Shown piece by piece: positions 9,801 to 63,239 of a DNA stretch of 64,000 nucleotides. The stretch is from NCBI RefSeq assembly GCF_988242995.1, contig NZ_OZ547043.1, one strand, 5' to 3'. The notes under the pieces are model-generated. The model was not told the origin of the DNA. It ran no database searches and saw only the letters and a list, made by a program, of their open reading frames with translations. The first letter of the stretch is position 1; the number at the start of each line of letters is the position of its first letter. A program made the translations under genes and the position numbers.

Positions 9801-10993
9801 ATGCAGGTAGCCCAGTTCAACTCTCACTACCAGTATGATCCCAAGTTCGAGCGCGGAATGTATCTGTATGAGCATCGTCGCTGTTTCAATAACATCATCG
9901 ACTACTGTAACTCACTTTGCTATCACGGTAAGTTGCAGCCTAAAAGAGGGATGGAAAAAGGACGATTTTCCCCGCAATGGGATATTTACATATTGATGGT
10001 AGAGGCATGAAGCCAAATGGAGGGAGCCGTCATAACCCTCTTGAAGCTGAAACAATAGCAGCATGGCTGGTGGCACATAAGGATGATATAGAGCGCCATT
10101 ACGGGGAACCACTGTACAAAGTTGTTGGTGTTGTGACGCCATTTTCGGCGCAGGTTAATGCTATCAAAATGTCATTGCGTAAGCTGGAAATTAATGGCAA
10201 AGACGAGCAGGGTTTACTGACAGTGGGGACTGTGCACTCCTTGCAGGGGGCGGAAAGGGCGATTGTTCTCTTTTCTCCTGTCTACTCAAAACATGAAGAT
10301 GGCAGGTTTCTTGATAGCAACAGCACTATCCTCAATGTTGCTGTCTCACGCGCTAAAGATAGTTTTCTGGTATTTGGCGATATGGACCTTATCGAGATGC
10401 AGCCCGCATTTTCGCCGCGAGGGTTATTGGCAAAATATCTCTTTTCTTCAGATAATAATGCGTTGCAATTTGAGTTTCAGAAACGACAGGATTTAATTTC
10501 CGCACATACACAAATTTCAACGCTGCATGGTGTGGAGCAGCATGATGAATTTTTGAACAAGACTCTTGCCGGAGCTCAAAAGAAAATAACGATTATTTCC
10601 CCTTGGTTATCCTGGCAAAAAGTGGAGCAAACGGGATTTCTGGCATCAATGGCTTTGGCCCGTTCCCGGGGCATTGATATTACCGTGGTGACGGATAAAA
10701 ACTGCAATATAGCGCATGTCGATGATGATAAGCGTCAGGAGAAACAACATCTGCTGAATGATGCTGTTGAAAAGCTCAATAAGATGGGTATCGCTACGAA
10801 ATTGGTTAATCGTGTTCACAGCAAAATTGTGATTGAGGATGAAGAACTGCTGTGTGTCGGATCTTTTAACTGGTTCAGTGCTACACGGGAAGATAAGTAT
10901 CAACGATACGATACGTCTTTGGTGTACCGTGGTGAAGGCGTAAAAAATGAAATAAAGGCAATATATGGTAGTCTGGATCAACGTCAGCTTTAA
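9801..10993 (+). pseudogene. yjhR: remnant of SF1 helicase (C-terminal lobe) fused to PLD-family nuclease domain; frameshifted and 5'-truncated
   Basis: Two consecutive frames (9801-10010 and 9977-10993). Helicase motifs V/VI ([28 protein letters not shown]) and an HxKxxxxD motif (HSKIVIED at about 10816-10839). No room upstream for a Walker-A lobe. Confidence 0.65.
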
Positions 10994-11575
10994 ATGTGAT
11001 GAGCCGTTCATGATACAGGAGTAGTAAAGGGCATATTTTACCAATGTTAAGGCGACTTTCCGTTTTATTGCGAGTCGCCTTTCCTGATTATAAATCTTAT
11101 TGTTTACCTAATCATTTTCCTTTGCATAATGCGCCTGGGATTAATGGCGGGTGCTTTTAGGAATGAAAGAAAATGCAAGCAATAATATAATAATGGCCTA
11201 ATTTCTTTGAACATCATTAAGCATATCATCATCGTCTATTTGCCAGAATCCGTCGACTTATAATCGCCAGAACGGCATATCAGGACGGTGCTGCGAACGC
11301 TGTGGCCCAAAACGTTCCAGTAAACTGTGTAGATGTTCGTAGATTTCCGAGCCATAATCGAAAAGGCGCGGATGTCTATTAAGGCATCCGGCTAATCTGT
11401 AAGCAATAACAACGGTTTATGCGGTACGCGTTTTTCACCCTTGTGCCAGATTATTATATTGGCAATTGCCTGCTGTTCGAGCCCGCAAGTGAAGAGATAT
11501 TACCTTGATCTCATTTGTTTTTTGTTGTCTACTCTGAGAACGAACAAGGACATCCCCCATGAATAAACTCCCCGC

Positions 11576-43959: not shown

Positions 43960-44874
43960 ATGACAAACTTCACGACCAGCACGCCGCATGATGCATTATT
44001 TAAAACCTTTCTCACGCACCCTGACACTGCGCGGGATTTTATGGAGATTCACTTACCTAAAGATTTACGTGAACTGTGCGATCTCGATAGCTTAAAACTG
44101 GAATCCGCCAGCTTTGTCGATGAAAAATTGCGGGCGCTACACTCCGATATTTTATGGTCGGTAAAGACCCGCGAAGGCGATGGCTATATCTATGTGGTGA
44201 TTGAACATCAGAGCCGCGAGGACATTCATATGGCCTTTCGCCTGATGCGCTATTCCATGGCGGTGATGCAGCGCCATATAGAGCATGATAAACGCCAGCC
44301 GCTACCGTTGGTCATCCCGATGCTATTTTATCACGGTAGCCGTAGTCCTTACCCCTGGTCCCTGTGCTGGCTGGACGAATTTGCCGACCCGACTACCGCA
44401 CGGAAGCTTTATAACGCCGCGTTCCCGCTGGTGGATGTTACTGTCGTGCCAGACGACGAGATTGTGCAGCATCGCAGAGTCGCCCTGTTGGAGTTGATCC
44501 AAAAGCATATTCGCCAGCGCGATCTGATGGGGCTTATCGATCAACTGGTAGTATTACTGGTTACAGAGTGTGCTAATGACAGCCAGATAACTGCGCTGTT
44601 AAATTACATTTTACTGACTGGCGATGAAGCGCGTTTTAATGAGTTTATCAGTGAACTTACCCGTCGAATGCCACAACACAGGGAGCGAATAATGACGATT
44701 GCAGAGCGAATTCATAATGATGGATATATAAAAGGGGAGCAGCGCATTCTTCGATTGTTGTTGCAGAATGGGGCGGATCCTGAATGGATACAAAAGATTA
44801 CCGGACTTTCGGCAGAGCAAATGCAGGCATTAAGGCAGCCCTTGCCTGAGCGCTATTCATGGCTCAAGAGCTAA
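43960..44874 (+). CDS. rpnD: Rpn-family (YhgA-like, PD-(D/E)xK) recombination-promoting nuclease, intact
   Basis: 304-aa ORF with D...E-x-Q nuclease core (DILWSV...YVVIEHQS). Confidence 0.7.
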
Positions 44875-46871: not shown

Positions 46872-47320
46872 GGGGGATATAGATTTATATATAATAAAAC
46901 GTTTTTATGTTGTTAAATTAAGTTATAAAAATTTTCCCGAGACAATTCATCAATAGGTATGGAGTGTACAGGAATATCTTCTTCACTAACCTCTTTAAAC
47001 TCATACTGATAACGGTCAAAAAACGCACAGTGATTACTTGTGTTTTTTGACTGACTTTACAACTCTCATTATTCGCTATTGTGCAGTTTCTCTAATTGTT
47101 TTATATCCTGGAATGTTAAATGTCAGCTACTGAATACTTTTTGATTGTTTGAGATTTATTTTCATTTGAAATTATAAAATCAGGTGATAAATGAGTTGTG
47201 ATTAATAGATGGTTGATATCATTTTTATCAAAAATTGATTTCTAGTATCGACCTTAAAAAATAGTTGTTGCCGCTTGGTTAATTATACGATATTTTGAAA
47301 AGTTTTCTTTCAAATTAGAA

Positions 47321-50300
47321 ATGTTGTGGGGTTTTGTTTTTGTATCTTTTATCTCTAAGGAGCTTGCTTTGGGTCAATCAGAATACATTTCATGGGTAAA
47401 ATGTACTTCCTGGCTAAGTAACTTTGTGAATCTTAGAGGGTTGAGACAACCGGATGGACGTCCTCTTTATGAATATCATGCAACCAATGCTGAATATAAC
47501 CAATTAACGCAGCTACTCTGTGCTGTTGGTCAATCACAATCTAATATATGTAATAGAGACTTTGCTGCCTGTTTTGTTCTTTTTTGCTCTGAGTGGTACC
47601 GCAGGGATTATGAACGGCAATGCGGATGGACGTGGGACCCTATATATAAAAAAATAGGGATTTCATTCACCGCCACAGAGCTTGGTACTATCGTACCGAA
47701 AGGGATGGAAGATTACTGGCTGCGCCCAATTCGATTTTATGAATCTGAACGACGTAATTTTCTCGGAACATTATTCAGTGAAGGTGGTTTACCTTTCCGG
47801 CTACTCAAAGAATCAGACAGTCGCTTTCTGGCTGTTTTCTCCAGGATCCTTGGACAATATGAGCAAGCAAAGCAGTCAGGTTTTTCTGCCCTTTCGCTGG
47901 CAAGAGCTGTCATAGAAAAATCAGCGCTGCCAACTGTTTTTAGCGAAGATACCTCTGTAGAACTTATCAGTCATATGGCTGATAACCTCAATTCCTTAGT
48001 ACTTACTCACAACCTAACAAATCACAAAGAACCAGTACAACAGCTTGATAAGGTTCACCCTACCTGGCGAAGCGAGTTTCCAATACCGTTAGATGATGAA
48101 ACAGGAACGCATTTTTTGAATGGACTGCTATGCGCAGCCTCTGTAGAGGCTAAGCCTCGACTACAAAAAAATAAGAGTACGCGTTGCCAATTCTATTGGT
48201 CAGAAAAGCATCCAGATGAGCTTAGGGTGATAGTATCTCTTCCTGACGAAGTTTCCTTTCCTGTAACTAGCGAGCCGTCAACTACGCGCTTTGAACTTGC
48301 CATTTATGAAGATGGTGAGGAAGTCTCTGGCCTTGGGCCAGCCTATGCTTCCCTGGAAAACAGACAGGCAACAGTTCGATTACGTAAAAGCGAAGTGAGA
48401 TTTGTCAGGCAAAATCCATCTGCAGGTTTGTCGTTAGTGGCTCGTGCTGGAGGGATGATTGTTGGGAGCATTAAACTTGATGACAGTGAAATTGCCATTG
48501 GTGAGGTGCCGTTAACCTTCATCGTTGATGCAGATCAATGGCTGTTACAGGGACAGGCCTCCTGCAGTGTGCGAAGCAGCGATGTTCTGATTGTGCTCCC
48601 TCGGGACAATAGCACTGTTGCTGGTTTTGATGGCCAATCGAGTGCAGTAAACGTATTAGGACTTAAAGCGCTACCTGTTAAGGGATGTCAGGACGTTACA
48701 GTTACAGCAAATGAAACTTATCGGATTCGCACCGGAAGAGAACAAATCAGCATCGGAAGGTTTGCTCTAAATGGAAAGCGTGCAAGCTGGGTTTGTCATC
48801 CAGATGAGACATTTATTGGTGTACCAAAAGTCATTTCTACACTACCAGATATTCAAAGCATTGATGTAACGCGTTACCTGAGCGGAATTTCAATTGAGCA
48901 ATGTCATATACAAGAGATGCTAGGGGCTCAATATCTTTCTATCCGTAATAGTAATAATGAAACGCTCTTGCGTCGCAAAATCGGTATCTTGCCTGCTGAT
49001 TTCAGTATTGAGATAAAAGGTGGAATGCACGCAAATGAAGGCACTATCGTAATCACCACACAGCATCCTTGTGTAGCAACACTTAAAGATAAAACATTGG
49101 AGGCTACACGTAAGCGTACTGAGGGGCGAACAGAGATACAACTCAAAGCGGAAGGGGTACCTCCGGCATTTATTACATTACAAGTTCTGCCTAATTTGGC
49201 GGCTGATACCATCGACATTGAGTTACCTTTCCCAGCTAAAGGCTGCCTTGCTCTTGATGTAAACGGACGTCCTCTGGATAAAAACATTACGCTGCATGAT
49301 CTGCTGGGTTCCAGAGCATTCCTGTTCTCCAGAAATGGTGAGCCGACAAAATATACATTGCAGTTGCATTTGCGCTCCATTAGTGGATTACAGGCATGGC
49401 ACGAATGGAGTTATACGGCATTGAGCGAGCGTCCTGTTGAATTGAATCTCTATAGTCTACGTGAACACATTGAAAATCTGATTTCACTTGAGGCAGGTAT
49501 TGATCAGGTTGTTGAGATGCGTATTACGGGGGCGGGTGTGGTCATGGCCTGGCAAATTCGTCGCTATAAATACAGCCTGCGCTATGATTATGAAAAAGAA
49601 CTATTACTCAGCCAGTCAGTGAACCATCGTGCTGGACAGATTCCTTCCCCCGTTATCATGCTGTTAAGTGAACCCGAGAGGAAATCCATTCCCTTAGCAT
49701 CAAGAATGAGCGAGGGAGTGCCTGTCGGTGAATATGAGTTGAGCTCAATCGTTAACAAAAACGGACCATGGTTGGTTGTTCCTAAACCGGGTGAAGAGAT
49801 GGCTTTTCGCCCCTGCTTCATTCGTGGCGAATCTTCGTTACCGGTAGAAGAAAGCAACATCCGCTCATTGCAGAAAGCGACCCAGCTTTTTAATCCACAG
49901 GCAGAAGTTAATACCATCACACGGGTTCTCGGACAGATGGCTAACGATCCTGCCCATTCCGGCTGGCAATTTATGCGTAGCCTGTACGATCAATTTGGTT
50001 ATTTACCGCTGGCAACCTTTGAAGTATGGCGTGCACTAGTGCAGCATCCGCAGGCATTGGCGATGTCGCTCTTCAAATTCGAAATGTCAGCAGAGTATCT
50101 GAGTCGTATTGAGAATGAGTTCCCTATTTTATGGGAGTTTTTCCCCATCTTTGAGATCAAAGCTGCATCTGAGCGTTTCAAATTGTTCCTGAGCCAAAAA
50201 GGTGCACCGGAGGAAACCCAGAAATTACTGGTTACCAATATGTTTCAACGGCTGGGGCTCGTGTTCCCGACATATGCCGATGAAATTGAGAAATGGTTAA

Positions 50301-50659
50301 GTAATGGATATCTCCCCCCGTCTATTCCTGAATCTTGTGTCCACGGGTGGTATCAGGAGCTCTTACGTGAGCACAGTGAAGCTCGCTGGCCTGAATACGG
50401 CTGCAAGCGTCTGTATAAATGGATGATGTCACAAAAAAATCCAGTGATTGGTATTAATCCTGACGCAAATCACCGCTATTCCGTGGCCTGGTTACCCGTC
50501 TTCGCCGCAGCGGTGGCAAGCGGAAATGCTTCTTTTGAATCTGTATTTGACCGTAAACCCGGTGCCGTATTTTTCCTGAGGCAAGTCAGGGATTTCGATT
50601 CCCGCTGGTTTAAGGCCATCTTCCAGTTCAGCCTGTTGCGTTATGTTGCTAAAAAATAA
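47321..50659 (+). CDS. large protein (1112 aa) of unknown function, first gene of candidate defence operon
   Basis: Uninterrupted 3.3-kb ORF. No nucleotide-binding or nuclease motif recognised by eye. An in-frame TTG at 47369 preceded by AAGGAG may be the true start. Stop lies 12 nt before the helicase gene. Confidence 0.8.
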   Translation: MLWGFVFVSFISKELALGQSEYISWVKCTSWLSNFVNLRGLRQPDGRPLYEYHATNAEYNQLTQLLCAVGQSQSNICNRDFAACFVLFCSEWYRRDYERQCGWTWDPIYKKIGISFTATELGTIVPKGMEDYWLRPIRFYESERRNFLGTLFSEGGLPFRLLKESDSRFLAVFSRILGQYEQAKQSGFSALSLARAVIEKSALPTVFSEDTSVELISHMADNLNSLVLTHNLTNHKEPVQQLDKVHPTWRSEFPIPLDDETGTHFLNGLLCAASVEAKPRLQKNKSTRCQFYWSEKHPDELRVIVSLPDEVSFPVTSEPSTTRFELAIYEDGEEVSGLGPAYASLENRQATVRLRKSEVRFVRQNPSAGLSLVARAGGMIVGSIKLDDSEIAIGEVPLTFIVDADQWLLQGQASCSVRSSDVLIVLPRDNSTVAGFDGQSSAVNVLGLKALPVKGCQDVTVTANETYRIRTGREQISIGRFALNGKRASWVCHPDETFIGVPKVISTLPDIQSIDVTRYLSGISIEQCHIQEMLGAQYLSIRNSNNETLLRRKIGILPADFSIEIKGGMHANEGTIVITTQHPCVATLKDKTLEATRKRTEGRTEIQLKAEGVPPAFITLQVLPNLAADTIDIELPFPAKGCLALDVNGRPLDKNITLHDLLGSRAFLFSRNGEPTKYTLQLHLRSISGLQAWHEWSYTALSERPVELNLYSLREHIENLISLEAGIDQVVEMRITGAGVVMAWQIRRYKYSLRYDYEKELLLSQSVNHRAGQIPSPVIMLLSEPERKSIPLASRMSEGVPVGEYELSSIVNKNGPWLVVPKPGEEMAFRPCFIRGESSLPVEESNIRSLQKATQLFNPQAEVNTITRVLGQMANDPAHSGWQFMRSLYDQFGYLPLATFEVWRALVQHPQALAMSLFKFEMSAEYLSRIENEFPILWEFFPIFEIKAASERFKLFLSQKGAPEETQKLLVTNMFQRLGLVFPTYADEIEKWLSNGYLPPSIPESCVHGWYQELLREHSEARWPEYGCKRLYKWMMSQKNPVIGINPDANHRYSVAWLPVFAAAVASGNASFESVFDRKPGAVFFLRQVRDFDSRWFKAIFQFSLLRYVAKK

Positions 50660-50671
50660 AAAGGAATAAGG

Positions 50672-53600
50672 ATGACTACACGCTATTTTTCGTCACTTAT
50701 TGAACAATCGTTGTCTCGTTCAACTGAAGCAACGCTCAGTATCATGGGCGTTACAAACCCGCAGTTGCGTGAACATCTCGCGCAGCAAATGGGGGCTGAT
50801 TGTGGGAAACCGGGCTCATTCCTTGCTTCTCCGGTATTCCAGCAAATGTTTGGCTGGAAGGAGTCAAACCACACGATGCGCAGTCTGACGGAAGGCAACG
50901 CATTGTTGAGCAAAGCAGTGGTTGATTCACTGGATGATCAGAGTAATGGCCGGTACCGATTTGGTGCTGACTGGAAGCCTTTTACACACCAGTTAGCCAG
51001 TTGGAAAGCTTTGCTGGAAAAGAAACATTCAGTGGTGGTAACCAGTGGTACGGGTTCAGGTAAAACGGAATGTTTTATGGTACCGGTGCTGGAAGATCTT
51101 TACCGGGAACTGCATGAAAATGGCAACAATCCGTTGGTCGGTGTCCGAGCCCTTTTTCTCTATCCATTGAACGCCTTGATTAATTCACAGCGCGAGCGTC
51201 TGGATGCCTGGACGCGTGGTTTTGGTACTGGGATCCGCTACTGCTTGTATAACGGAAATACAGAAGAGCTCCACGCAAAAATGAAAACAGTGCAGGATAA
51301 TAGACCAAATGAAGTCTTATCCCGTGAAAAGATGCGTCTGGAGCCAGCCCCGATTCTGGTGACCAACGGCACGATGCTGGAATATATGATGGTTCGCCAG
51401 GTCGACGCCCCGATTATCCAGCAATCCAAAGCACAAAAATCACTACGCTGGATTGTACTGGATGAAGCGCATACCTATGTCGGGTCGCAGGCCGCTGAAC
51501 TGGCACTCCAGCTGCGTCGTGTGATGACAGCGTTTGGCGTGACGCCAGATGATGTGCGCTTTGTAGCGACCTCTGCGACCATTGCCTGCAGCGACGCCGA
51601 AAAGCAGCTGAAAAAATTTCTCTCTGAATTATCCGGTATCCCGCAGGAGCGCATCGATGTTCTGGACGGAAGTCGGGTGATTCCTGAACTGGAACCATCC
51701 AAAAACGTTTCTGTTCCGTTAGACGAAATAGAGCAAATACCTGATCTGGATCTAAAAGATAAAAATGATAATAAAATTAAAGGGATAAGCCCTGAGCGCT
51801 TTTATGCGCTTACGCACTCCCCCGAAGCGCGTTACATACGTGAAATGTTGGTTAGCCAACCCAATCCAATGAAACTGGATGAGATGACGCAGCGGTTAAA
51901 TGCGCTGACAAAACAGCATTACAGCCAGCAGGAAGTACTGCGTTGGATCGATGTCTGTTCAGGGACTCAACCTAATGCAAAGGATCCCGCATTTCTTAAA
52001 GTCAGGGCGCATATCTTCCAGCGTAATACCCAAGGAATATGGGCTTGTGTTGATAAAGATTGCAGATTAAAGCACGGTACACCGCTCGAAAAAGGCTGGC
52101 CCTTTGGCTATGTGTATGTGAACCAGCGACAAAATTGTGACTGTGGAAGCCCTGTATACGAAGTTGCATTCTGTAATGATTGTAATGAGCCTCATCTTCT
52201 GGCGCAGGACAAAAAGGGCAAACTTGTCCAATGGGAAAATAAAGGTGGCGATGAGTTCTCCTTGCAGGATGAAGTACCTGTTGAACATGACACTACAGAG
52301 GAAAAAGTCGAAAAAGAGAACGGTTTCCTGCCTCCGTTGATTATTGCCGCAGGAGAGACCAGCGAGACAGGCTATACCCTACAACGCCTCGACCACCAGA
52401 CGCGCCGTATTGGCGTTATTAACAATGACAGCATTCCGCTGATTATTAATGATGTTGAACAGGTTTGTAGCGCCAGTGGCTGTGGCTACAGAGGCATGAG
52501 TGGGAAACAGCCCTTCCGGCGTGCACTATTAGGTGGGCCATTTTACGTTACTAATATCGTGCCCACCGTTCTTGAGTATTGTCAGGACTTTACCAGTGAT
52601 GAAGGCAAAGAGGGCGTCGGACCAGATTCGTTGCCAGGGCGAGGACGTCGACTCATTACCTTTACGGACAGTCGACAAGGTACAGCTCGAATGGCGGTGC
52701 GTATGCAGCAAGAAGCAGAACGCAGTCTCTTACGCGGAAGCGTAGTCGAAATTCTGAGCTGGCATCAACGGACGCAAACGTCCACGGCGCCGAATGCCAA
52801 TGCCGATCTGGAAAAATTAGCGGCCAGGGCAAAGCAAGCCCGTGAGCAGGCAGAAGAATATCGAAGCTGGGGAATGCCAGACCAGGCGAAATTGTCACAA
52901 GCACAGGCTGAACAGCTTGAACAGGCTTATCAGGCTGCAACCGGTGGAAAAGCAGCAACTACCCTGGTATCCCGCACCTGGACAGAAATGGTTAACGAGC
53001 TTAAAGATAAAGCCGATATCCGTGGCCCGGTACTGAAATATAACCACTATTTGCAGCCTGAAGTGTTTAATAAAAACGGCGGGCCACTAAAGCTTTCGGA
53101 AATGTTGTTGTTCCGGGAATTCATGCGTCGCCCTAAACGGACTAACAGCCTGGAAACACAGGGGCTGGTTCAGGTTGGTTACCAGGGGCTGGAGAAAATA
53201 CATAAGAGCCCCTTGCACTGGCAGGAAAAAGGATTAACGCTGGATGACTGGCGCGATTTTCTCAAGGTTACGTTGGATCTTTATGTTCGCGAAAGCAACT
53301 TCACACAGCTGGATGATGAGCTGAAAAACTGGATTGGTAGCCGTTTTTCATCAAAATTCGTCCGTAACCCGGAATCAAAAGATCCTGAAGATAATCAGAA
53401 CAGACGCTGGCCTCAAATTCGTAATGGCAACGTATCCCATCGTTTAGCGAAGTTACTGATGCTGGGGGCTGGATTCAAAACCGTCAATACGGCGACTATT
53501 GATATTATCAATACATGGCTGAAAGAAGCATGGGCCCAACTTACCGGACCACTTGCAGTACTGAAACCCGATGGCAACCGTTTTTATTTACCGAAAGAGC

Positions 53601-56600
53601 ATATGACTTTTTCTTTAATCACGGATGCCTGGATTTGCCCGGTAACCAATAAAATCCTGGATACGGCTTTTAAAGGCTTAACCCCTTATCTGCCCACCCA
53701 TATTTCGTTCGAGCATCTTACCCAGGCGCAATATGACACTTTTGTCGCGCAGAAAGTCACCATGCCGGAAATCTGGAAGCTGGATCGTTCACAGGAAGAC
53801 TACGCAGAGGGTCTGGCAAAAGCACGAGACTGGGTCAACAATGATCCGCTGATCGCACAATTGCGGTCGGAAAACGTCTGGACAGACATCAACGATCGTG
53901 TAGTGGAAGGCGGTTTCTACTATCGCACTGCCGAGCACTCTGCCCAGCAGTCGTCAGAACGCCTGCAAAGCTATGAAAAGATGTTCAAGAACGGGCAACT
54001 AAATGTTCTCAACTGTTCCACCACCATGGAAATGGGGGTTGATATTGGGGGCATTACTGCGGTGGTAATGAACAACGTTCCGCCACATCCGGCCAACTAT
54101 TTACAGCGCGCCGGGCGAGCCGGGCGTAGTAAAGAATCACGCGCGATCTCTTATACCCTATGCAAAGGTAACCCACACGACCAGCAGGTTTTTGCCAACC
54201 CACTCTGGCCATTTGAAACCATGATCCCGGCACCCATGGTCGCGATGAACTCCGCCCGACTGGTGCAACGTCACGTCAATGCATTATTACTGTCTGACTT
54301 TTTATGTAACGTTATTGGCGAAACCGATAAAGAGAAAACCAGCCTCGATAGCCTCTGGTTTTTCGGTGAAGATGACGGGCAGTCAAAATGCGAACGCTTT
54401 AAAGTCTGGCTGGAACGCCCGGTTCTTGATATCGACATGGCGCTGGAACGGCTGGTGAAAGGTACGGCGTTGCATGGCGCAAGAGCCGAACATCTGCGGG
54501 ATAAAACAATCAATGCGATCACCTTCCTGCAACAGCGGTGGCTCTCCGTTTATCGCGATCTCGTGACCCAGGAGCGTGAGTCGCAGCCGCAAACGCCTTA
54601 TCGTAAGCGCATAGAGCTGGAGAAGAAACGGCACTGTGGCGAGTATCTGCTGCGCGATCTGGCTGCCAGAACCTTCCTGCCGGGATACGGTTTCCCGACA
54701 GATGTAGTGACGTTTGATAACTTCACGATGGAAGATTATATCCGCGAAAAATCGCAGAAAAGTCGTGATAAAAAGGACCGTGAAGATAACGTCTCCCGTT
54801 ATAAAGGATTACCTTCCCGTAACCTCGGTGTTGCCATTCGTGAATATGCACCGGGAGCAGAGATCATTCTTGATGGTCGTGTCTTCCGCTCTGCCGGTGT
54901 CTCACTGCACTGGCACAACATTAATGCTGATACCAATGAAGCCCAGCGTCTGGATTGCGCCTGGCGCTGTCACAAATGCGGGACCATTGGCTATGAAGAG
55001 GGGATGAGCAGTTCCGGGATGCTCTTTTGCTCCAACAGCGCCTGCGGCGAAAAAATAACCATGGATAATCGCCGTCAGGTGTTGCAGCCTGCCGGGTTTG
55101 TCACCGATGCACACGCTCCGGTAACGAACAATATTGAAACCATGAAATTCGTCCCGGTTGTCCCCGCGTGGGTCTTTGTTAAAGCAGAGCCTGTACCGTT
55201 GCCTAACCCGCTAATGGGTTATATGGCTTCTGGGGCTGATGGGCATGTTTTCCAGCAAAGTTTGGGGGAAGGTGGACACGGTTATGCATTGTGTCTGAGC
55301 TGTGGCCGTGCGGAGTCGATGCTGAATGAAAATGATGCACCGAAAAGTATGGAAGCTCACTATCCACCGCGTCCGGGTAAAGCGGACCGCGACAGCCAGA
55401 ATCATCGTCTGATTTGCCCCGGTTCGACGGCACTCATGAAGAACGTCACCCTGGGCGCACTGGCGCGCACCGATGTCTTTGAAATGGTTCTGCGCAAACC
55501 GCAAAACGGCGAGTATCTGCCAGATAACACAGAAGAGGGGCGGATTGTCGCTATGACTCTGGCGGTTGCTCTGCGTCAGGCGCTGGCAGGCGTTCTGGGT
55601 ATCTCCGCCGCAGAACTCGGCTATTCTGTACGTCCGGTCAGACTGGAGGATGGGCAATCGGTATTAGCCGTTCAGCTTTATGATGTGATCAGCGGTGGTG
55701 CTGGTTTTGCCTCCAGCGCACCGGTACATATTGAAGCTATATTGCAGGGAATGGTGAAACAGTTAGGCTGCCGCCATTGTGATACTGCATGCAGTGAATG
55801 TCTGCTTGATTCCCAGACTCGCCACGATCACGATTTGCTGGATCGCAAAGTGGCGCTGGCTTGGCTTGGCGATGACTTCACGTATTACATCGGTTTACCG
55901 GATGAAGAGACATTCTCGCTGCCGGATGCCCGCTACTGCCCTGGCGCTATTGGCGATACGATTCGCCGGGCGATTAACGAAGGCGCTGAAAAGCTCACCC
56001 TGTGGATGACTGGCGCGCCCAATGAGTGGGATTTATACGGCCGTCAGTTCCGCGCGGCTATTCAGAGCTATCGGCTAAAAGACAACGTCGAGGTCGATCT
56101 TGTTATTCCTGCGGGAGTGGATGACCCAGACCTGTTGCATGAACTATCGCAATTTACTGCGCTGGGTGTGCGGTTGTGCCATGTTGAGCAGGAGCTGCAA
56201 TTACCGATTGTTGCCCAGGTCACCTTTGCCGATCGCGTGATGACGCTGGCCTCTCGCAGTCAGCAGGCAACGATTCCGGGGCCGGAGTGGCACCTGAATG
56301 ACGAACTGGTGGTGCGTAGTCTCGGTTATCAAACGGTAGAACTGAACGAGTTTATTCTGCCCGCTAAAGCCGCCAACGCTGTCGAGCGGGTCAAAGACAT
56401 TCAGATCCACAAACAGTTGAATGGACCACTTTCGCAGTTTGGGCAACGCTTCTGGGACGTGCTGTTTAACGACCATGAAGAAGCGCAGTCACTGATGAAA
56501 AACACGCGAATTACCGGCGTTCACTATACCGATCGCTATCTGCAAAACCCGGTTGCGCTGGCGTTGTTGGGATCAATTCTGAAACCGCTAAAAACAAAGC

Positions 56601-57016
56601 TGACCGATGGCGCTGAAGTGGCGCTGGATACGCTGTTTAAAGATAAAGATCGCCCCGGTAACCGGCCTTTCCATGACTGGATGAGCATAGCGGATTTTCA
56701 GGATTTCGCTGATCAGTGGTTTGCTGCTGCGCTGGGCAGGCCGATAGAACTGACGGTGTTCGATTCGCCGCGCGATATCCCTCACCATCGTAAACTGACG
56801 GTGACTTTTGAGGATGGTCAGGTATTGAAGATCCGCTTCGATCAGGGGATGGGCTACTGGCGCATCAACTTTGCATCGCAATGGCATTACTTTGATTTCC
56901 GCGATGACGTTTCTTTCCAGTTAGTCAAAATGGCTCAGGCCTGCAAGGAAGGGAATGTGGCCAACAGCGAAGAGAGCTGGGCAACGGATGTGCTGGTGGA
57001 GGTGATCGCCTCCTGA
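50672..57016 (+). CDS. giant SF2 (DEAH-type) helicase, 2114 aa, with Cys-rich zinc-ribbon clusters (DUF1998/MrfA-like); DruE-like candidate
   Basis: Walker [11 protein letters not shown] (51041-51070); DEAH box VLDEAH (51455-51472); FVATSAT; motif [10 protein letters not shown] (54104-54127); Cys clusters at 52046-52183, 54956-55045, 55292-55303 and 55769-55801; AAGGA RBS before the ATG. Confidence 0.85.
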
Positions 57017-57072: not shown

Positions 57073-58119
57073 TTATTTGAGATATTCATCGAAAATGGCG
57101 AGTAATTCTTGATGTATACACGGCCATTCCTGACCTAAATTGACGGTACACAGGCCAATATCGAAGCCATTAATTTTATAACGATGTTTCACTGCGGTGT
57201 CTACGTGGGGGTATATTAATAAACCCCCTATGTTTTCGCCATTTTCAGGTTTTAACGACCATAAGTAATTCATCAGTTGATAAAGATTTTGAGAGTGAAA
57301 TTTTTCTGAGCCCATTCGTCGTGAAAAAATGCTCTTATAGTATTTGGCGTCAACGATAAGTATTTTTTCTGATGAGCGAATGGTGATGTCAGTTTCCATT
57401 CGAGGTAACAAATTAAGTGACTGATCCGATATGCTCGATGCATCCCATTTTAAATAAGAGCGGGTTGTATTTGCAGACGTTAATTCACGGCGGCAAAATT
57501 CAAAAAGAAACTTTTGATAAAGTAATGACATCTCTTTTTCGTTTCTTTCAAAATCATAGAAACGGTAGTGTCCTTTGTTTTGACCTGGGATAGAATTATT
57601 GACGATGAACTTACAGACGCTGATAACAAATTTATAATAACGCGTGTTCTTTCCGCCATTCAGATAGCTGAAATGCTGCGGAGTTAAATGAAGAGTGCTA
57701 ATGCCCGGTAATTTTCTATAAAGTGAACGAGCTTCATCTCTGATGGTTGAGTTTAACTTTTCATGCTTAATTAACATGGCTAATGTGCTTTTTATAATTC
57801 GGTTAGCCAGCGTATCTTCATTAAGCAGATCAAAAGTACTGACGGTTTTCCCATGATTAAGATGGAAGCCGCGTATTGTTTTAGCAAACTCTATTCGCCC
57901 TTTGATGCCAGGAATGATCTCGGTATTAGGATTGTAATCAAGCTCAAGCCCTCGGCGTGAAAGCTGTAAAACCCCTTTATTTAATACATACCCCAGGATA
58001 TCAAGAAGATTGTTACCGGGAATGGCTTCAAGGTCGGCCTGCTTAATTTCCTGTAAATAACCCCATGCATAGGTAAGCATGTAATAGATATTACGGACAG
58101 GTATCACGGGCTGTTCCAC
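57073..58119 (-). CDS. mcrC: McrBC restriction endonuclease, nuclease subunit
   Basis: 348-aa ORF whose start overlaps the mcrB stop; recognised as McrC. Confidence 0.9.
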   Translation of the reverse strand: MEQPVIPVRNIYYMLTYAWGYLQEIKQADLEAIPGNNLLDILGYVLNKGVLQLSRRGLELDYNPNTEIIPGIKGRIEFAKTIRGFHLNHGKTVSTFDLLNEDTLANRIIKSTLAMLIKHEKLNSTIRDEARSLYRKLPGISTLHLTPQHFSYLNGGKNTRYYKFVISVCKFIVNNSIPGQNKGHYRFYDFERNEKEMSLLYQKFLFEFCRRELTSANTTRSYLKWDASSISDQSLNLLPRMETDITIRSSEKILIVDAKYYKSIFSRRMGSEKFHSQNLYQLMNYLWSLKPENGENIGGLLIYPHVDTAVKHRYKINGFDIGLCTVNLGQEWPCIHQELLAIFDEYLK

Positions 58120-59498
58120 TATGAGTCACCTAATAATTTGTCGGCCCATATCTGTTGTTTATAGGGGTCATCAAAGAAATATTCTTCGAGTAAAGGGGCG
58201 ATATCCGTCATCACAATTTCCTTAAGCCATTGCGTATCAGGAGAGGTGCCATCTTCCAACCCGGAGCAGAAGTAACTATGCCCAATGCGGAATCCTTTCC
58301 CAAGGATAGTGGCCTCTTTGCTGATTTCCTGGTTTAACTCATTCATTTTTTGGCATAAAGACTCAACAAATGAAGGTTCTGCTTTTTTATTCAGTAAAAA
58401 ATTACGGAACTGTGGTGTATCAAAACCAGGCTCAATATCTATGAAAGAAAATCGTCTGCGCAGGGCATAATCAACAACGGCCAGAGAGCGATCGGCAGTA
58501 TTCATTAAACCGATAATATAAACATTCTCCGGGACATAGAATCGTTCTTCATCGTTTTCGGAATAGGTTAAGGGAACAGACCAGTTTTCACCTCGTTTAT
58601 CATGTTCCATTAACATCATCACTTCGCCAAATACTTTACTGAGATTGGCACGATTGATTTCATCTATAATAAAAACATACTTTTTCTCTGGCTGCTCTTT
58701 AGCTTGCTGACAAAAATTGTAAAATATGCCGTCTTTACGTCGGAAGCCGACGCCATTCGGACGATAGCCCTGTATAAAATCCTCATAGCTATAAGATTGA
58801 TGGAACTGAACCATATTGACGCGTTGCGGAGCCTTTTCTCCTGTCAGCAGGTAAGCCAGACGGCGTGCAACAAAGGTTTTTCCAACGCCGGGCGGCCCCT
58901 GGAGGATAATATTTTTTTTGATGGTTAATCGTTTGAGTATCGTCTCTATCGTGGTTTCAGGGATAAACAAATCATTTAACGCATCTTCCAGACAGTATGA
59001 TTCAGTTTTTGACATAGGTGGAATAACACTCTTGCCAGAATTAAATATTAATTTATAGTCGTTGATTATGTTGTCCAGCATGGAGGCAAACCGGGTATAA
59101 TCAAGACCCTGTGAGACTTTTTGGGAACAGGCGTAATAGGACTGTCCGTATTTTTTAGGATAAACACCTGAAGTTGTCTGGAAATACTCTGCGATTGTTT
59201 TAGGTATGTCTGAAGAGAACTGCCATTGGGCATGTGGTTTATTCGTGTCGCTTATACCATAAGCCAAAACCAACTCATCAAAATCTTTATAATAGAGAAT
59301 AACGGGATATATACCGTTAGAAACTTCCTGACCTTCTCCCAGAAATGCAAACCAGGGAATAGATGTAAAATTGCCATAACCGAAACTCACTTTTACTCGC
59401 AGGTTACGGTAAGACGTTGGATAATCTTTGGTGGATTGTGAACTTTTTTGCTGTGCTTGCTCAATAAATTTTTCAATCCAGGCTTGAATTGATTCCAT
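58119..59498 (-). CDS. mcrB: McrBC 5-methylcytosine-specific restriction enzyme, GTPase/DNA-binding subunit
   Basis: AAA+ Walker A GPPGVGKT and Walker B FIIDEINRAN; start placed at MESIQAWIEKF for about 459 aa (ORF track begins 6 codons earlier). Confidence 0.9.
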   Translation of the reverse strand: MESIQAWIEKFIEQAQQKSSQSTKDYPTSYRNLRVKVSFGYGNFTSIPWFAFLGEGQEVSNGIYPVILYYKDFDELVLAYGISDTNKPHAQWQFSSDIPKTIAEYFQTTSGVYPKKYGQSYYACSQKVSQGLDYTRFASMLDNIINDYKLIFNSGKSVIPPMSKTESYCLEDALNDLFIPETTIETILKRLTIKKNIILQGPPGVGKTFVARRLAYLLTGEKAPQRVNMVQFHQSYSYEDFIQGYRPNGVGFRRKDGIFYNFCQQAKEQPEKKYVFIIDEINRANLSKVFGEVMMLMEHDKRGENWSVPLTYSENDEERFYVPENVYIIGLMNTADRSLAVVDYALRRRFSFIDIEPGFDTPQFRNFLLNKKAEPSFVESLCQKMNELNQEISKEATILGKGFRIGHSYFCSGLEDGTSPDTQWLKEIVMTDIAPLLEEYFFDDPYKQQIWADKLLGDS

Positions 59499-59659
59499 AA
59501 GATGTGCCTTCCTCATTGCTAAGCCTCTATTATCGCTTTCGCAACGTACTGAAACAATAGATTTTTACTGCAAAAGGTGGTGGGTAAATATTTACTGAGG
59601 GGGAAAGTTTCTATTGAGTCAGTGGAAGGCTCCCGGTGGTTAACCGGGAGTAAACGCTG

Positions 59660-60001
59660 TTACGCGACTTTCTGTTTACCGGCAATCACTCCAATAAACG
59701 CCTGCACCTGCTTTTGTTTACGTGCCGACAGCTTGCACACCTGGCGCAGCGACTGCATCAGTTCGCTCTCTTCGACGGCGAGTGGTTGGGCGGTGAGGAC
59801 AATACAGCCTTCCATCACTTTGACATCTACCGCCGTGCCGGTGGTAAAACCGGCGGCTTCCAGCCACTGACCTTTCAGGGTGATGGCGGGAATACGGCTG
59901 TAATCCGGGTAGCGACTCGCATAACTCACGGTTAATTGACGGTTATTTGCCGGGGAGACTTCTGCTTCGAACGGTTGTGCAATAGAATGCATGTCAGTCA
60001 T
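59660..60001 (-). CDS. symE: SOS-induced toxin SymE (AbrB-fold RNA endonuclease-like)
   Basis: 113-aa [55 protein letters not shown]...; upstream LexA box. Confidence 0.85.
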
Positions 60002-60072
60002 GATTACTATTCCTTAGAAATAGGGATTGTGATTAGCGGTGCGGGTGTGTTGGCGCACATCCGCACCGCGCT
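59996..60072 (+). ncRNA. symR: cis-antisense sRNA SymR (antitoxin RNA of symE), approximate
   Basis: Plus-strand TAGAAT -10 at 59983-59988 inside the symE 5' codons; GC-rich hairpin at 60036-60069 would end a roughly 77-nt transcript antisense to the symE RBS and start codon. Boundaries inferred. Confidence 0.35.
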
Positions 60073-60078
60073 AAATAC

Positions 60079-60094
60079 CTGGATATATCATCAG
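60079..60094. promoter_or_regulatory. LexA box (SOS operator) upstream of symE
   Basis: CTGGATATATCATCAG fits CTGT-N8-ACAG with one mismatch in each half; about 80 bp upstream of the symE start. Confidence 0.5.
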
Positions 60095-60228
60095 TAAATA
60101 CCGGGAAAGTCCAGCTAAAAATAGAATAAAATGGGCAATTTCCGGAATGATTTAAATATATTTATGTGAGTTATGATTGGCGAGAAATAATAAAAAGCGC
60201 ACCGGAAAGGTGCGCCAGAAAATAATGA

Positions 60229-61653
60229 TCAGAACTTTTTACGCGAGGCTTTTTTACCCCCGCTGGCTGCGCGCTCAGCTTTGATTTTCTCCAGCAACGC
60301 AGCGGCGCTGTTTTCTCCGCTGATTAAATCCGGGTTTTCGGCCCGCCACTGGGCGGTGAGTTCACCACGGAACGCTTTTGCCAGGATGGATTGCGTCAGG
60401 TTGTTGACGCGGGCTAAGGCGTTGTTGACCTGTTTTTCTATGGAGTCGGCGTAGGCGAAGAGTTGCTCGACGCGGCGAACGATTTCGTGTTGTTCTTCTA
60501 TAGACGGTAAAGGGACAAATGCATTTTTAAGATCTTTTAAATTTAATGTCTTTCTGGCGACCTCCTTAGATGACTGAACTAGCCATGTTTGCATAACTGG
60601 TGAACTTAACCATATATGGAGAAACATAGGAACAATAATCTTATATTCAGGAGATATTCTGGCAACGGCACGAGCGATATTAACATTTATATCTTCTCTA
60701 ACAATACCTATTCTACCTATAGCCCCAACAATTGTTACAAGAATGTCATTCTTTCGTACTTTGGAACGCTTATATTGTAAATCTATTTCCTTTGAAATTT
60801 TACGAAGATGATTTAAATCTACTTCACCATCGTTAATATCACAAACACGAATTAATTCTATACCGTCTTTTATATCATCTCCAGGTTGCACCACACCATA
60901 ACATAATGGTCTTTGTGTATTGATAATGTTATTCAAAATTGTTTCACTCCAGTCTTCTGGAATAAGGATTTTGTAGTTATCTAATTCAACTTTTTTTGTT
61001 ATAAAATCTTTATCTTCTTTGGTCAACCTACCAGTTACTGCCGCAGCCAACACCGCCTGACGAAAACGTTTCAGGATTTGTGGGATTTGCTCAAGGCGTG
61101 CTTTGGTGCTGTCTACCTGCGCCAGCAGCGTATCGAGTTTTTCAGCGATGATTTTTTGCTCGGCAAGTGGTGGCAACGGAAGTAGGGTATCTTGAAGTGT
61201 CCTGGAAGAAAGATGCTTTACAGTAACCGAGGACGTATTTGCATTGATTGCGGATAAATATCCTGGTAAGGCGTGATAGAAAAACCTTTTATTGTATTTG
61301 TCTTCCTGAACTTCAATTTTACATACTCGTTGATTTAACAGAGCTGGTTCTGAGCACCATATAGTTGCATTAAAATCACCATCCATTCCCACGATTAAGT
61401 CTTCGGGATATACCCAATATCCCTCAGGAATTTGACCCGAGTAATAAGTCGATGTATTACCTTTTAGAACATCACGAATTCTAATTAATGGTACACCATC
61501 TTTACGATTATTAAATTCTGACGACTTAAAAGCAAAACCGTTTGTGATGTTTGCTACGGAATCCATTGAAATACGTAACCAGCTATCATGGATTGAAAGT
61601 AACCCATTGATATTTTGCTCAATTAATTCTTTTGATGTTGAGTTGAAACTCAT
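60229..61653 (-). CDS. hsdS: type I restriction-modification specificity subunit
   Basis: 474-aa ORF with two variable target-recognition regions separated by a conserved central repeat (LPPLAEQKIIAEKLDTLLAQVDSTKARLEQIPQILKRFRQAVL) and a similar C-terminal repeat (LPSIEEQHEIVRRVEQLFAYADSIEKQVNN); 4-nt overlap with hsdM. Confidence 0.9.
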   Translation of the reverse strand: MSFNSTSKELIEQNINGLLSIHDSWLRISMDSVANITNGFAFKSSEFNNRKDGVPLIRIRDVLKGNTSTYYSGQIPEGYWVYPEDLIVGMDGDFNATIWCSEPALLNQRVCKIEVQEDKYNKRFFYHALPGYLSAINANTSSVTVKHLSSRTLQDTLLPLPPLAEQKIIAEKLDTLLAQVDSTKARLEQIPQILKRFRQAVLAAAVTGRLTKEDKDFITKKVELDNYKILIPEDWSETILNNIINTQRPLCYGVVQPGDDIKDGIELIRVCDINDGEVDLNHLRKISKEIDLQYKRSKVRKNDILVTIVGAIGRIGIVREDINVNIARAVARISPEYKIIVPMFLHIWLSSPVMQTWLVQSSKEVARKTLNLKDLKNAFVPLPSIEEQHEIVRRVEQLFAYADSIEKQVNNALARVNNLTQSILAKAFRGELTAQWRAENPDLISGENSAAALLEKIKAERAASGGKKASRKKF

Positions 61654-63239
61654 TCCTTCACCCCACCAAACGCTTCTTCCAGCAACTGACGCTGTGCATC
61701 CGCCTCATCGCTCGCTCCCAGTTCACGTATCAGCGCATCCAGTTCGCCCAGCGCCTGTACCAGCTCGCCCATCGCTTCTGCCGCTAATACATCCGGCTCC
61801 GGCAGGTTGTCGGCATCAATGCTATCTTTATCTTTCAGCCAGGAGATATCCAGCGAATCGGATTTCGTGGTGCGGATCCACTCGCGGGTGAACTTACGCC
61901 AGCGGCTGGTAGCCAGGTGCTGGTCGGTGTTTTTGTTCTCTTCGCTGTCGGCAACTTCCGTCTCTTCGGCGTTAAAACTCCATTCCCCTTCGCTACGCGG
62001 GCTTAAACCGTGCGGATCTTCGCCATACACGCGCTCAAACGGCTGCAGATGCTCGTCGGTAAACGGCGTGCGTTTGCCGAAGCTCGGCATATTGGTACGC
62101 AGGTCGTACACCCACACATCATCGGTACAGTTCTTATCCTGATGCGGGTTCGCCACCGTCCCTTTGGTAAAGAACAGCACGTTCGCCTTCACGCCCTGCG
62201 CGTAAAAAATACCGGTCGGCAGACGCAGAATAGTGTGCAGATGACACTTATCCATCAGGTCACGACGGATGTCCGTGCCTTTGCCGCCTTCAAACAGCAC
62301 GTTATCCGGCACCACCACCGCCGCACGACCGCCGGGGTGCAGTGTTTCGATAATATGCTGCATAAAGCACAATTGTTTGTTGCTGGTCGGGTGAACAAAG
62401 GTACGGGTAATGTTGGTGCCTGCGGCGCTACCAAACGGCGGGTTAGTGGCGACAATATGCGCCTTCGGCAGGTTTTCACCGTCGCTACCCAGGGTGTTGC
62501 CCAGACGGATTGCGCCACCGTGGTCGAGGTTGCCTTCGATATCGTGCAGCAGGCAGTTCATTAGCGCCAGACGACGGGTGCCGGGTACCAGTTCGAGGCC
62601 GATAAACGCGCGGTGGATCTGGAAATCCTGCGTGTCGCCATCAAGGTCGTCCAGATCGTTAGTCTGCGACTTAACGTAGCGGTCAGCTTCAATCAAAAAG
62701 CCCGCTGTACCTGCTGCCGGGTCCTGCACCACTTCACGCGGCTGCGGTTTCAGCAGATGAATAATGGTTTTAATCAGCGGACGTGGGGTGAAGTACTGGC
62801 CCGCGCCAGACTTGGTTTCGTTGGCGTTTTTCTGCAACAGCCCTTCGTACATATCGCCGAAGTCATCGCGTGACTTACCGTGCGCGCCGTTGTACCAGTC
62901 CAGTGAATCCATATTGCTGACCAGTTCGGTCAACTGTTTCGGCTGGGTAATGGTGGTGTTGACGTTCTGGAACACCGCCTGCACCAGCTTTTGATTGTCG
63001 GCGCCCAGATGCACCAGCAGGTTACGGTAGAACTGCAACTGCTCCTGGCCGATGCGGGATTTCAGGTCATCCCAGCGGTAGCCTTCCGGCAGGTATTCCG
63101 CTTCCTGTCCGGTTTCTTTACACATTTTCAAAAACAGCAGCGAGGCGAGTTCATTGACGTAGTTTTGATAGGAAACGCCGCCATCGCGCAGGTTGTCGCA
63201 CAGTTTCCACAGCTTCGCGACCAGATCGTTATTGTTCAT
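61650..63239 (-). CDS. hsdM: type I restriction-modification N6-adenine DNA methyltransferase subunit
   Basis: 529-aa ORF with the catalytic NPPF motif (IVATNPPFGSAAG) and SAM-binding region. Confidence 0.95.
   Translation of the reverse strand: MNNNDLVAKLWKLCDNLRDGGVSYQNYVNELASLLFLKMCKETGQEAEYLPEGYRWDDLKSRIGQEQLQFYRNLLVHLGADNQKLVQAVFQNVNTTITQPKQLTELVSNMDSLDWYNGAHGKSRDDFGDMYEGLLQKNANETKSGAGQYFTPRPLIKTIIHLLKPQPREVVQDPAAGTAGFLIEADRYVKSQTNDLDDLDGDTQDFQIHRAFIGLELVPGTRRLALMNCLLHDIEGNLDHGGAIRLGNTLGSDGENLPKAHIVATNPPFGSAAGTNITRTFVHPTSNKQLCFMQHIIETLHPGGRAAVVVPDNVLFEGGKGTDIRRDLMDKCHLHTILRLPTGIFYAQGVKANVLFFTKGTVANPHQDKNCTDDVWVYDLRTNMPSFGKRTPFTDEHLQPFERVYGEDPHGLSPRSEGEWSFNAEETEVADSEENKNTDQHLATSRWRKFTREWIRTTKSDSLDISWLKDKDSIDADNLPEPDVLAAEAMGELVQALGELDALIRELGASDEADAQRQLLEEAFGGVKE

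Follow-up and report, generated by a model that had tools for sequence, protein, structure and literature searches.

The yjiT reading frame of an E. coli immigration control region as druH of an intact type III Druantia operon

The open reading frame confirmed at 47321-50659 on the + strand of the window (the whole stretch of 64,000 nucleotides that was analysed, from contig NZ_OZ547043.1 of assembly GCF_988242995.1) is, to judge from its sequence matches, almost certainly druH (yjiT in E. coli), which opens an intact type III Druantia operon of two genes, druH-druE. A sequence-only reading of this DNA had taken the gene for the non-helicase sensor or effector partner in a two-gene helicase defence system, which is borne out by PADLOC, where the pair matches DruH3 and DruE3 of type III Druantia. 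The DruH3 profile (PDLC00049) matches the product with E=0 and 1830 bits (protein residues 19-1112, in ATG numbering, on profile positions 3-1099), the NCBIfam model NF038336 (YjiT_fam) gives 1277 bits (cut-off 150), and RefSeq annotates the product as WP_001556397.1, 'protein YjiT'. A profile search also matches the solved DruH structure 9tud (E=9e-42), and profile-profile alignment to the clade of the characterised E. coli DruH (EcDruH) spans the full length at a probability of 100% (residues 1-1090 vs 3-1113). How far the match to 9tud extends depends on the method: a single-sequence phmmer search of PDB sequences covered residues 14-266, a profile reached about residue 945, and the full length needed a profile for each clade. 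Close homologs carry the precomputed Pfam labels PF27201 (YjiT_N) and PF27205 (YjiT_2nd). This identity is already known and not new, as the family is named and under active study; the partner role proposed earlier thus stands, while the label 'uncharacterised' does not, since the family has a name (DruH/YjiT; NF038336; YjiT_N, YjiT_2nd) and cryo-EM structures. The features of the locus are as follows.

46872..47368, + strand: AT-rich intergenic region between yjiS and druH (GC 0.286 vs 0.484 for the window)
47321..47368, + strand: 16-codon in-frame extension from the ATG, lacking a Shine-Dalgarno sequence and not in the RefSeq CDS
47357..47362, + strand: Shine-Dalgarno AAGGAG of druH, with a 6-nt spacer before the TTG
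47369..50659, + strand: druH (yjiT) CDS, 1096 aa, TTG start (PADLOC, NCBIfam, RefSeq)
47369..48142, + strand: predicted N-terminal alpha-helical domain, aa 1-258 (AF2; PF27201 YjiT_N on orthologs)
47573..47788, + strand: conserved functional patch, aa 69-140 (F69, E75, R78, R79, W89, Y116, W117, L132, T134, L135, G139, G140)
48182..49828, + strand: predicted beta-rich Ig/FnIII-like array, aa 272-820 (AF2; Foldseek)
49868..50656, + strand: predicted C-terminal alpha-helical domain, aa 834-1096 (AF2)
50657..50674, + strand: druH stop, 12-nt spacer with AAGGA and druE ATG (direct sequence reading)
50672..57016, + strand: druE, 2114-aa SF2 helicase with an MZB domain (PADLOC, Pfam, 9tu7 match)
57073..63239, - strand: neighbouring restriction genes mcrC, mcrB, symE, hsdS and hsdM (RefSeq annotation of the identical locus of strain 789)

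The locus, ordered yjiS, druH, druE, mcrCB, symE, hsdSMR, is the immigration control region of E. coli; in the RefSeq annotation, yjiS (DUF1127) lies upstream of the operon and mcrC downstream on the opposite strand, and none of the other Druantia genes (druA-D, druM/F/G) is found among the neighbours. The pairing of DruH with DruE is kept in O157, S. Typhi and Pseudomonas. A housekeeping role was also weighed and rejected, since the family occurs in restriction/defence neighbourhoods in four genera and is matched by defence-system models only. The tight coupling to the helicase gene noticed in the sequence-only reading is confirmed, with 12 nt separating druH from the 2114-aa reading frame. 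A scan found no terminator-like site in this gap, and such matches inside the operon occur at chance level (11 observed vs 10.7 expected). Orthologous junctions measure 12 nt in S. Typhi, a 1-nt overlap in O157 and an 8-nt overlap in Pseudomonas. The druE product itself matches PADLOC DruE3 (PDLC00037) with E=0 and 2692 bits, carries the Pfam domains DEAD (106-310), Helicase_C (1085-1153) and MZB (about 1631-1711), and has intact motifs (GSGKT128, DEAH264, RAGR1146 and a Cys cluster at 1700). It matches the solved EcDruE 9tu7 over its full length, with 1018 bits and an alignment over 5-2089. Subtype III-A is defined by a long DruE with PLD domains and III-B by a compact DruE; the length of 2114 aa and the 5-2089 alignment to the III-A EcDruE favour III-A here, and neither a regex search for the HxK motif nor Pfam PLD gave a match.

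We place the start of druH at the TTG at 47369, codon 17 of the ATG-initiated frame, because orthologs in S. Typhi and Pseudomonas begin at the equivalent position with in-frame stops just upstream. Specifically, the S. Typhi ortholog has the identical context, AAGGAGCTTGCT followed by TTG, offers no other start and is preceded by an in-frame TAA at a distance of 5 codons; in the Pseudomonas ortholog the equivalent position holds an ATG, and a stop lies 1 codon upstream. RefSeq places the yjiT start at the same TTG (locus position 16270, window position 47369), and the PADLOC DruH3 profile also begins at this codon. The suggestion that this TTG with its AAGGAG ribosome-binding site is the true start was therefore correct, and the length of 1112 aa, which does correspond to the 1112 codons counted from the ATG, was over-extended; the protein has 1096 aa. 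The ATG at 47321 was rejected as the start by comparison with the orthologs, which lack the 16-codon extension because of the stops upstream of their starts. The extension, which would encode the hydrophobic peptide MLWGFVFVSFISKELA, is probably not translated. The AT-rich region ahead of druH is presumably its promoter region, in which a sigma-70 scan returned nothing convincing, with weak matches only (8/12).

The AF2 model of DruH (pLDDT 77) assigns residues 1-258 and 834-1095 to helices and 272-820 to strands, predicting a helical domain at each terminus with an Ig-like array between them, as in the published cryo-EM descriptions of DruH. With Foldseek, as had been proposed earlier, the model matched only generic tandem Ig/FnIII ectodomains in a PDB library older than 9tud, with TM-scores near 0.1. 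By analogy with PaDruH of P. aeruginosa, whose C-terminal helical domain touches the DruE stalk (10.64898/2026.05.13.724313), the C-terminal helical domain is presumed to be the one that docks on DruE. The earlier observation that Walker motifs, nuclease signatures and transmembrane segments are absent also held: local Pfam-A gave nothing even at E<=10, a pattern search found no Walker A, DExH, PD-(D/E)xK, HKD or GIY-YIG motif, and a known nuclease motif or fold was not detected by Pfam-A, Foldseek or the pattern search. With a maximal Kyte-Doolittle mean of 1.29 over 19 residues, a transmembrane segment is not indicated.

Conservation is unevenly distributed over the three regions. The N-terminal domain is the best conserved, with a mean identity of 37% family-wide vs 27% in the Ig region, and the Ig-like array (aa 272-820) is the least conserved and fastest-evolving, a variability likewise reported by Wu et al. 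(PMC13192584). In EcDruH, alanine substitution at F69, E75, R78/R79, W88, W115, L129, T131/L132 or G136/G137 abolishes defence (PMC13192584), and every one of these essential residues is kept here (F69, E75, R78, R79, W89, W117, L132, T134, L135, G139 and G140; hhalign confidence 8-9). Across both clades and a family alignment of 129 sequences, the patch residues vary little or not at all, and polar residues conserved family-wide are essentially confined to the N-terminal domain (E42, E75, R78, R79, R119 and E138). The nucleotide pocket of EcDruH (Y670, N672, H689, Y733, R1031, H1062, R1064, K1067) behaves differently: the MAFFT, HMMER and hhalign mappings onto the present protein disagree, at confidence 1-4, and none recovers the full set. 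The sole confidently mapped position, Y733, corresponds to T720 in a variable column (hhalign confidence 8). Within the EcDruH clade itself, pocket residues are conserved in 8-11 of 13 sequences vs 13 of 13 for nearly all N-terminal residues.

Both druH and druE are required for defence in relatives (10.64898/2026.05.13.724758; 10.64898/2026.05.13.724313), yet four 2026 studies disagree on whether DruH is an exonuclease, an ATP-gated ssDNA binder, a phage sensor or a scaffold. PaDruH was described as a Mg-dependent 3'-5' exonuclease with a putative site in the N-terminal cleft, forming a fork-dependent 1:1 complex with DruE via its C-terminal domain (10.64898/2026.05.13.724313). In contrast, Hu et al. 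saw neither DruH nuclease activity under any tested condition nor a DruE-DruH complex (10.64898/2026.05.12.722862), according to Himpich et al. the two proteins form no stable complex and DruH leaves DruE unwinding in vitro unchanged (10.64898/2026.05.13.724758), and Wu et al. detected no more than weak nuclease activity in the monomer (PMC13192584). By analogy with these relatives, we lean, with a probability of roughly 55%, towards a reading in which DruH is a partner that engages DNA ends or forks and licenses DruE. DruH itself would have no helicase or ATPase activity, and would act with DruE on phage DNA intermediates that contain ssDNA, for example 3' tails or forks. The N-terminal helical domain of DruH, with the E42, E75, R78, R79, R119 and E138 cluster, would engage exposed DNA ends and probably trim them 3'-to-5'. 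At such substrates, docking of the C-terminal helical domain on the DruE stalk would release a DruE dimer from autoinhibition and make it an active helicase-nuclease, which would clear the phage DNA without killing the cell, while the fast-evolving central Ig-like array may tune or sense in a phage-specific manner. This account draws on the retained loss-of-function N-terminal residues, the polar cluster of that domain, the exonuclease and fork complex of PaDruH and the variable Ig region; it is weakened by the contested biochemistry, by the lack of a detectable nuclease motif or fold and by the use of other lineages in the experiments, EcDruH being only 18% identical.

Alternatively, DruH could be a non-catalytic, ATP-gated ssDNA clamp that holds DruE-unwound ssDNA by base insertion into a pocket between Ig5 and the C-terminal domain, a proposal that follows from cryo-EM of the ssDNA-bound and ATP-bound forms of EcDruH and from the finding that R1031A, H1062A and R1064A partly impair defence (10.64898/2026.05.12.722862). 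Cellular ATP would then block the pocket until infection lowers local ATP. We consider this clamp unlikely for the present protein: pocket conservation is not demonstrable here given the discordant mappings and the replacement of Y733, it is only moderate even in the EcDruH clade, and N672A and Y733A have only minor effects on defence (10.64898/2026.05.12.722862). No better placed is the idea that DruH is mainly a sensor of phage protein, whose baseplate-J-like and Ig-like region binds a phage structural protein and thereby triggers dimerisation and pathway activation. Wu et al. reported that DruH resembles baseplate J-family proteins in structure, that its Ig domains are under positive selection and that it co-immunoprecipitates with Bas37_0273 (PMC13192584), and the Ig-like region is indeed the fastest-evolving part in our own comparison; however, the co-immunoprecipitation signal was weak, Foldseek returned only generic repeats, and PaDruantia degrades forked DNA in vitro without a phage protein (10.64898/2026.05.13.724313). 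[quoted passage not shown]

Of modest value in its own right is the second, uncharacterised E. coli lineage of DruH represented here, and its conservation pattern, with the N-terminal cleft kept and the EcDruH nucleotide pocket not demonstrably so, offers comparative evidence on the dispute among the 2026 studies. It is tempting to speculate, tentatively and from sequence comparison, that the DruH proteins of E. coli fall into two lineages that have diverged deeply, while their DruE partners are much more alike, and that the lineage of the immigration control region keeps the N-terminal cleft while lacking the ATP/ssDNA pocket of the O157 type. If so, the cleft would be the site at which DruH worked ancestrally, with gating by ATP as a lineage-specific addition, and comparing the two lineages could settle the dispute between nuclease, ssDNA clamp and sensor. 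In annotations, the gene is best called druH (yjiT) and started at 47369, with the operon marked as an intact type III Druantia that lies next to McrBC and a type I R-M system.

Among known systems, EcDruH of the Zorya II/Druantia III/ARMADA II island (E. coli O157:H7 EDL933, ATCC8739 and NCTC12923; PDB 9tud) belongs to the same YjiT_fam, with YjiT_N and YjiT_2nd. The two proteins are of similar length (1119 vs 1096 aa), both start at TTG and lie directly upstream of a DruE of about 2100 aa, and they share identical essential N-terminal residues and, as modelled, the N-helical/Ig-array/C-helical architecture. Their identity is 18% overall and drops from 26% in the N-domain through 17% in the Ig region to 13% in the C-domain, whereas the cognate DruE proteins are far more similar (1018 bits, full length); moreover, the ssDNA/ATP pocket residues are not demonstrably retained here, and EcDruH is flanked by Zorya II and ARMADA while the present copy lies in the immigration control region by mcrBC/hsd. 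By its sequence, the present druH thus belongs to a lineage distinct from the characterised E. coli DruH. The PaDruH-PaDruE pair of P. aeruginosa type III Druantia (Loeff et al.) likewise consists of DruH and DruE, with the DruH architecture as described; a search for PaDruH (ERY33375.1) among 267 proteins by its published residue numbers (R22, K28, E64, E220) gave no match, and the numbering in one related sequence suggests that PaDruH E64 may correspond to E75 here. Closer relatives in the same clade as the present protein are STY4851 of S. Typhi and further enterobacterial and Pseudomonas orthologs, 41-77% identical over the full length, which share its start context, DruE pairing and restriction/defence neighbourhoods but occupy different genomic sites; in S. 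Typhi, unlike here, druE appears split into two ORFs. The pseudogenes yjiT and yjiV of E. coli K-12 lie at the same locus, between yjiS and mcrC. K-12 retains about 503 N-terminal druH codons, fused to DruE fragments with internal stops, and a 3' fragment of druE with 97.9% DNA identity to the window, whose operon is intact; yjiT and yjiV of K-12 are the decayed form of this druH-druE operon.

We assign the first gene of the helicase-coupled pair to druH, the non-helicase gene of type III Druantia, with a probability of about 97%. The ORF described in the sequence-only reading is present, with the helicase ORF 12 nt downstream:

47321-50659, + strand: druH ORF counted from an ATG, 1112 codons
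50672-57016, + strand: druE (helicase) ORF, 2114 aa

The druH product matches the PADLOC profile DruH3 (PDLC00049) end to end (E=0, 1830 bits) and the downstream protein matches DruE3 (PDLC00037; E=0, 2692 bits), which bears out the earlier proposal of a non-helicase partner in a two-gene helicase defence system. DruH also belongs to NCBIfam NF038336, the “YjiT_fam, STY4851/ECs_5259 family” (1277 bits; cut-off 150). The newer Pfam families PF27201 (YjiT_N) and PF27205 (YjiT_2nd) are present in its close homologs, and the helicase of homologous pairs has YjiV_N and MZB domains. At E<=1e-3 the family numbers 1534 cluster representatives, and 527 pass E<=1e-30; nearly all are close to 1100 aa long and align from end to end. 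The DNA of the locus recurs with 100% identity in several complete E. coli chromosomes, where RefSeq names the pair yjiT and “DEAD/DEAH box helicase”. The gene order (yjiR, yjiS, yjiT, helicase, mcrC, mcrB, symE, hsdS, hsdM, hsdR in RefSeq), with yjiT and the helicase between yjiS and mcrC, is that of the immigration control region.

The claim that the first gene lacks recognisable motifs also stands: the local Pfam-A library gave zero matches to DruH even at E<=10, a search for Walker A, DExH, PD-(D/E)xK, HKD and GIY-YIG patterns found none, and the maximum 19-residue hydropathy mean is 1.29, so a membrane segment is not indicated. The observation is thus real, but the partner is not “uncharacterised”, since it belongs to an already known, named and actively studied family. 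An AlphaFold2 model of DruH (mean pLDDT 77, pTM 0.46) is helical at 1-258 and 834-1095 and beta-rich in between (272-820), a three-part layout that agrees with the published cryo-EM descriptions of DruH. Foldseek comparison with a PDB library predating 9tud, the E. coli O157-type DruH structure (EcDruH), returned nothing but ectodomains with tandem Ig/FnIII repeats, at TM-scores close to 0.1; a similarly uninformative outcome was reported by Loeff et al. (10.64898/2026.05.13.724313) and Himpich et al. (10.64898/2026.05.13.724758).

The start codon is the in-frame TTG at 47369, as had been suspected; a spacer of 6 nt separates it from AAGGAG at 47357-47362. RefSeq starts yjiT at this TTG (locus position 16270), and position 3 of the DruH3 profile falls on residue 19 as counted from the ATG. 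In S. Typhi the ortholog (63% identity) has an identical start context (AAGGAGCTTGCT followed by TTG), with an in-frame TAA 5 codons upstream and without an alternative start; the Pseudomonas ortholog has ATG at the equivalent position and a stop 1 codon upstream, and O157 DruH likewise starts with TTG. On these grounds the 16-codon extension from the ATG (MLWGFVFVSFISKELA) is excluded, and DruH therefore has 1096 aa rather than the 1112 first proposed. Two antisense ORFs within druH (48928-49380 and 49588-49920, both - strand; 150 and 110 aa) are probably chance ORFs.

Within the druH-druE gap lies AAGGA but no terminator-like site; across the region such matches stand at chance level (11 seen, 10.7 expected). 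S. Typhi likewise has a 12-nt junction, and the two genes overlap by 1 nt in O157 and by 8 nt in Pseudomonas. DruE retains intact GSGKT128, DEAH264 and RAGR1146 motifs and the Cys cluster at 1700, has Pfam domains DEAD (106-310), Helicase_C (1085-1153) and MZB (about 1631-1711), and matches the solved EcDruE (9tu7) over residues 5-2089 with 1018 bits.

Upstream of druH, 46872-47368 is very AT-rich (GC 0.286), and no good sigma-70 consensus was found there. Horizontally acquired DNA bound by H-NS typically has such a composition. In infected cells, Himpich et al. (10.64898/2026.05.13.724758) found both H-NS and StpA enriched with DruE; a connection to this upstream region is speculative. Elsewhere in the window, hsdS (60229-61653, - strand; 474 aa, WP_000009567.1) is a different allele from that of K-12 (WP_001272447.1), so the type I restriction specificity beside Druantia differs from EcoKI. 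An Rpn-family recombination-promoting nuclease gene in the yjiP/yjiQ region (43960-44874, + strand) is intact, encoding 304 aa; the K-12 copy is a RefSeq pseudogene with an internal stop. At about 8750-11500, what looks like a second, decayed defence site comprises topAI (YjhX toxin), yjhQ, yjhP, the frameshifted “helicase YjhR” and, adjoining nanM, part of a restriction endonuclease that binds phosphorothioated DNA. The O157 Zorya II/Druantia III/ARMADA island is bordered by an intact phosphorothioated-DNA-binding endonuclease and a nanM fragment, and S. Typhi druH has genes for a YjhX toxin and a ScoMcrA-like HNH protein beside it; this other site may therefore be where the O157-type island inserts. 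Gene coordinates in 1-31000 are shifted by 6-8 nt relative to strain 789 (fimD 20058 vs 20052), so the two genomes are closely related and differ by small indels.

K-12 J53 has a decayed equivalent of 47369-57016 at L007:2792-7233: about 503 codons of yjiT remain, and beyond them lie two fragments of DruE that contain internal stops. The yjiT/yjiV pseudogenes of K-12 are hence a dead type III Druantia system. A comparable deletion may have given rise to P0119 (229 member sequences), a 921-aa protein carrying both YjiT and MZB domains. In O157:H7 17B6-2 (L002:7354-10713), the well-studied DruH allele is interrupted by a stop at codon 533 and carries a pseudogene annotation; druE is intact. In S. 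Typhi (L004:11313-17637), druE after the STY4851-type druH is called as two overlapping ORFs (845 and 1281 aa), pointing to a frameshift that may have inactivated the system. In some RefSeq records (hits H39 and H41) O157-type DruE goes under the name “motility-regulating DEAH-box RNA helicase”, which has nothing to do with defence; Himpich et al. (10.64898/2026.05.13.724758) list motility assays on a druE mutant of EDL933 among their methods.

Four 2026 studies conflict on DruH biochemistry. Loeff et al. (10.64898/2026.05.13.724313) describe a 3'-5' exonuclease that depends on Mg, has its putative site in an N-terminal cleft and, via its C-terminal domain, forms a fork-dependent 1:1 complex with DruE that activates the helicase. 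Wu et al. (PMC13192584) describe a phage sensor whose nicking activity is enhanced in the dimer and whose N-terminal surface is essential, and Himpich et al. (10.64898/2026.05.13.724758) a monomer whose association with DruE is indirect and infection-sensitive. Hu et al. (10.64898/2026.05.12.722862) instead report ssDNA binding with ATP competing, and neither nuclease activity nor a complex. The alanine substitutions that abolish EcDruH defence (PMC13192584) map onto the window protein with hhalign confidence 8-9:

EcDruH F69, E75, R78/R79: window F69, E75, R78, R79
EcDruH W88, Y114/W115: window W89, Y116/W117
EcDruH L129, T131/L132, G136/G137: window L132, T134/L135, G139/G140

Both clades and the 129-sequence family alignment show little or no variation at these positions, except for Y114/Y116 and conservative T/S and L/V/I exchanges. 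Charged residues conserved at >=93% family-wide lie almost all in the N-domain (E42, E75, R78, R79, R119, E138); conserved C-terminal positions are aromatic or proline, and the Ig-like region is the most variable portion. For the ssDNA/ATP pocket of EcDruH (Y670, N672, H689, Y733, R1031, H1062, R1064, K1067; 10.64898/2026.05.12.722862), MAFFT, HMMER and hhalign mappings differ (confidence 1-4), and the sole confident position, Y733, corresponds to T720 in a variable column, so that its conservation in the window protein cannot be shown from alignment. Within the EcDruH clade itself, pocket residues are kept in 8-11 of 13 sequences, and the N-terminal set in 13/13 at nearly all positions. We thus favour the N-terminal cleft as the putative working site. 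The conservation data lead us to prefer a partner that would engage DNA ends or forks and license DruE, a specific mechanism, extrapolated from relatives at every step, to which we give about even odds.

The experimentally studied E. coli DruH (EDL933, ATCC8739, NCTC12923) has 1119 aa and is flanked by Zorya II and ARMADA II; our reference EcDruH is the locus from an O157:H7 genome, with which all published residue numbers agree. The window DruH shares only 18% identity with it (N-domain 26%, Ig region 17%, C-domain 13%), yet their homology is certain: the window-clade profile matches 9tud at E=9e-42, and clade-against-clade hhalign aligns residues 1-1090 with 3-1113 at 100% probability. DruE is far more conserved than DruH between the lineages, in agreement with the faster divergence of DruH noted by Wu et al. 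(PMC13192584). Among 5426 complete E. coli genomes, about 280 carry the window type in intact form and about 470 the O157 type, while the K-12 lineage retains a decayed remnant of the former. The window DruH belongs to a second lineage within E. coli, itself uncharacterised, and the way its residues are conserved bears on the dispute over what DruH does.
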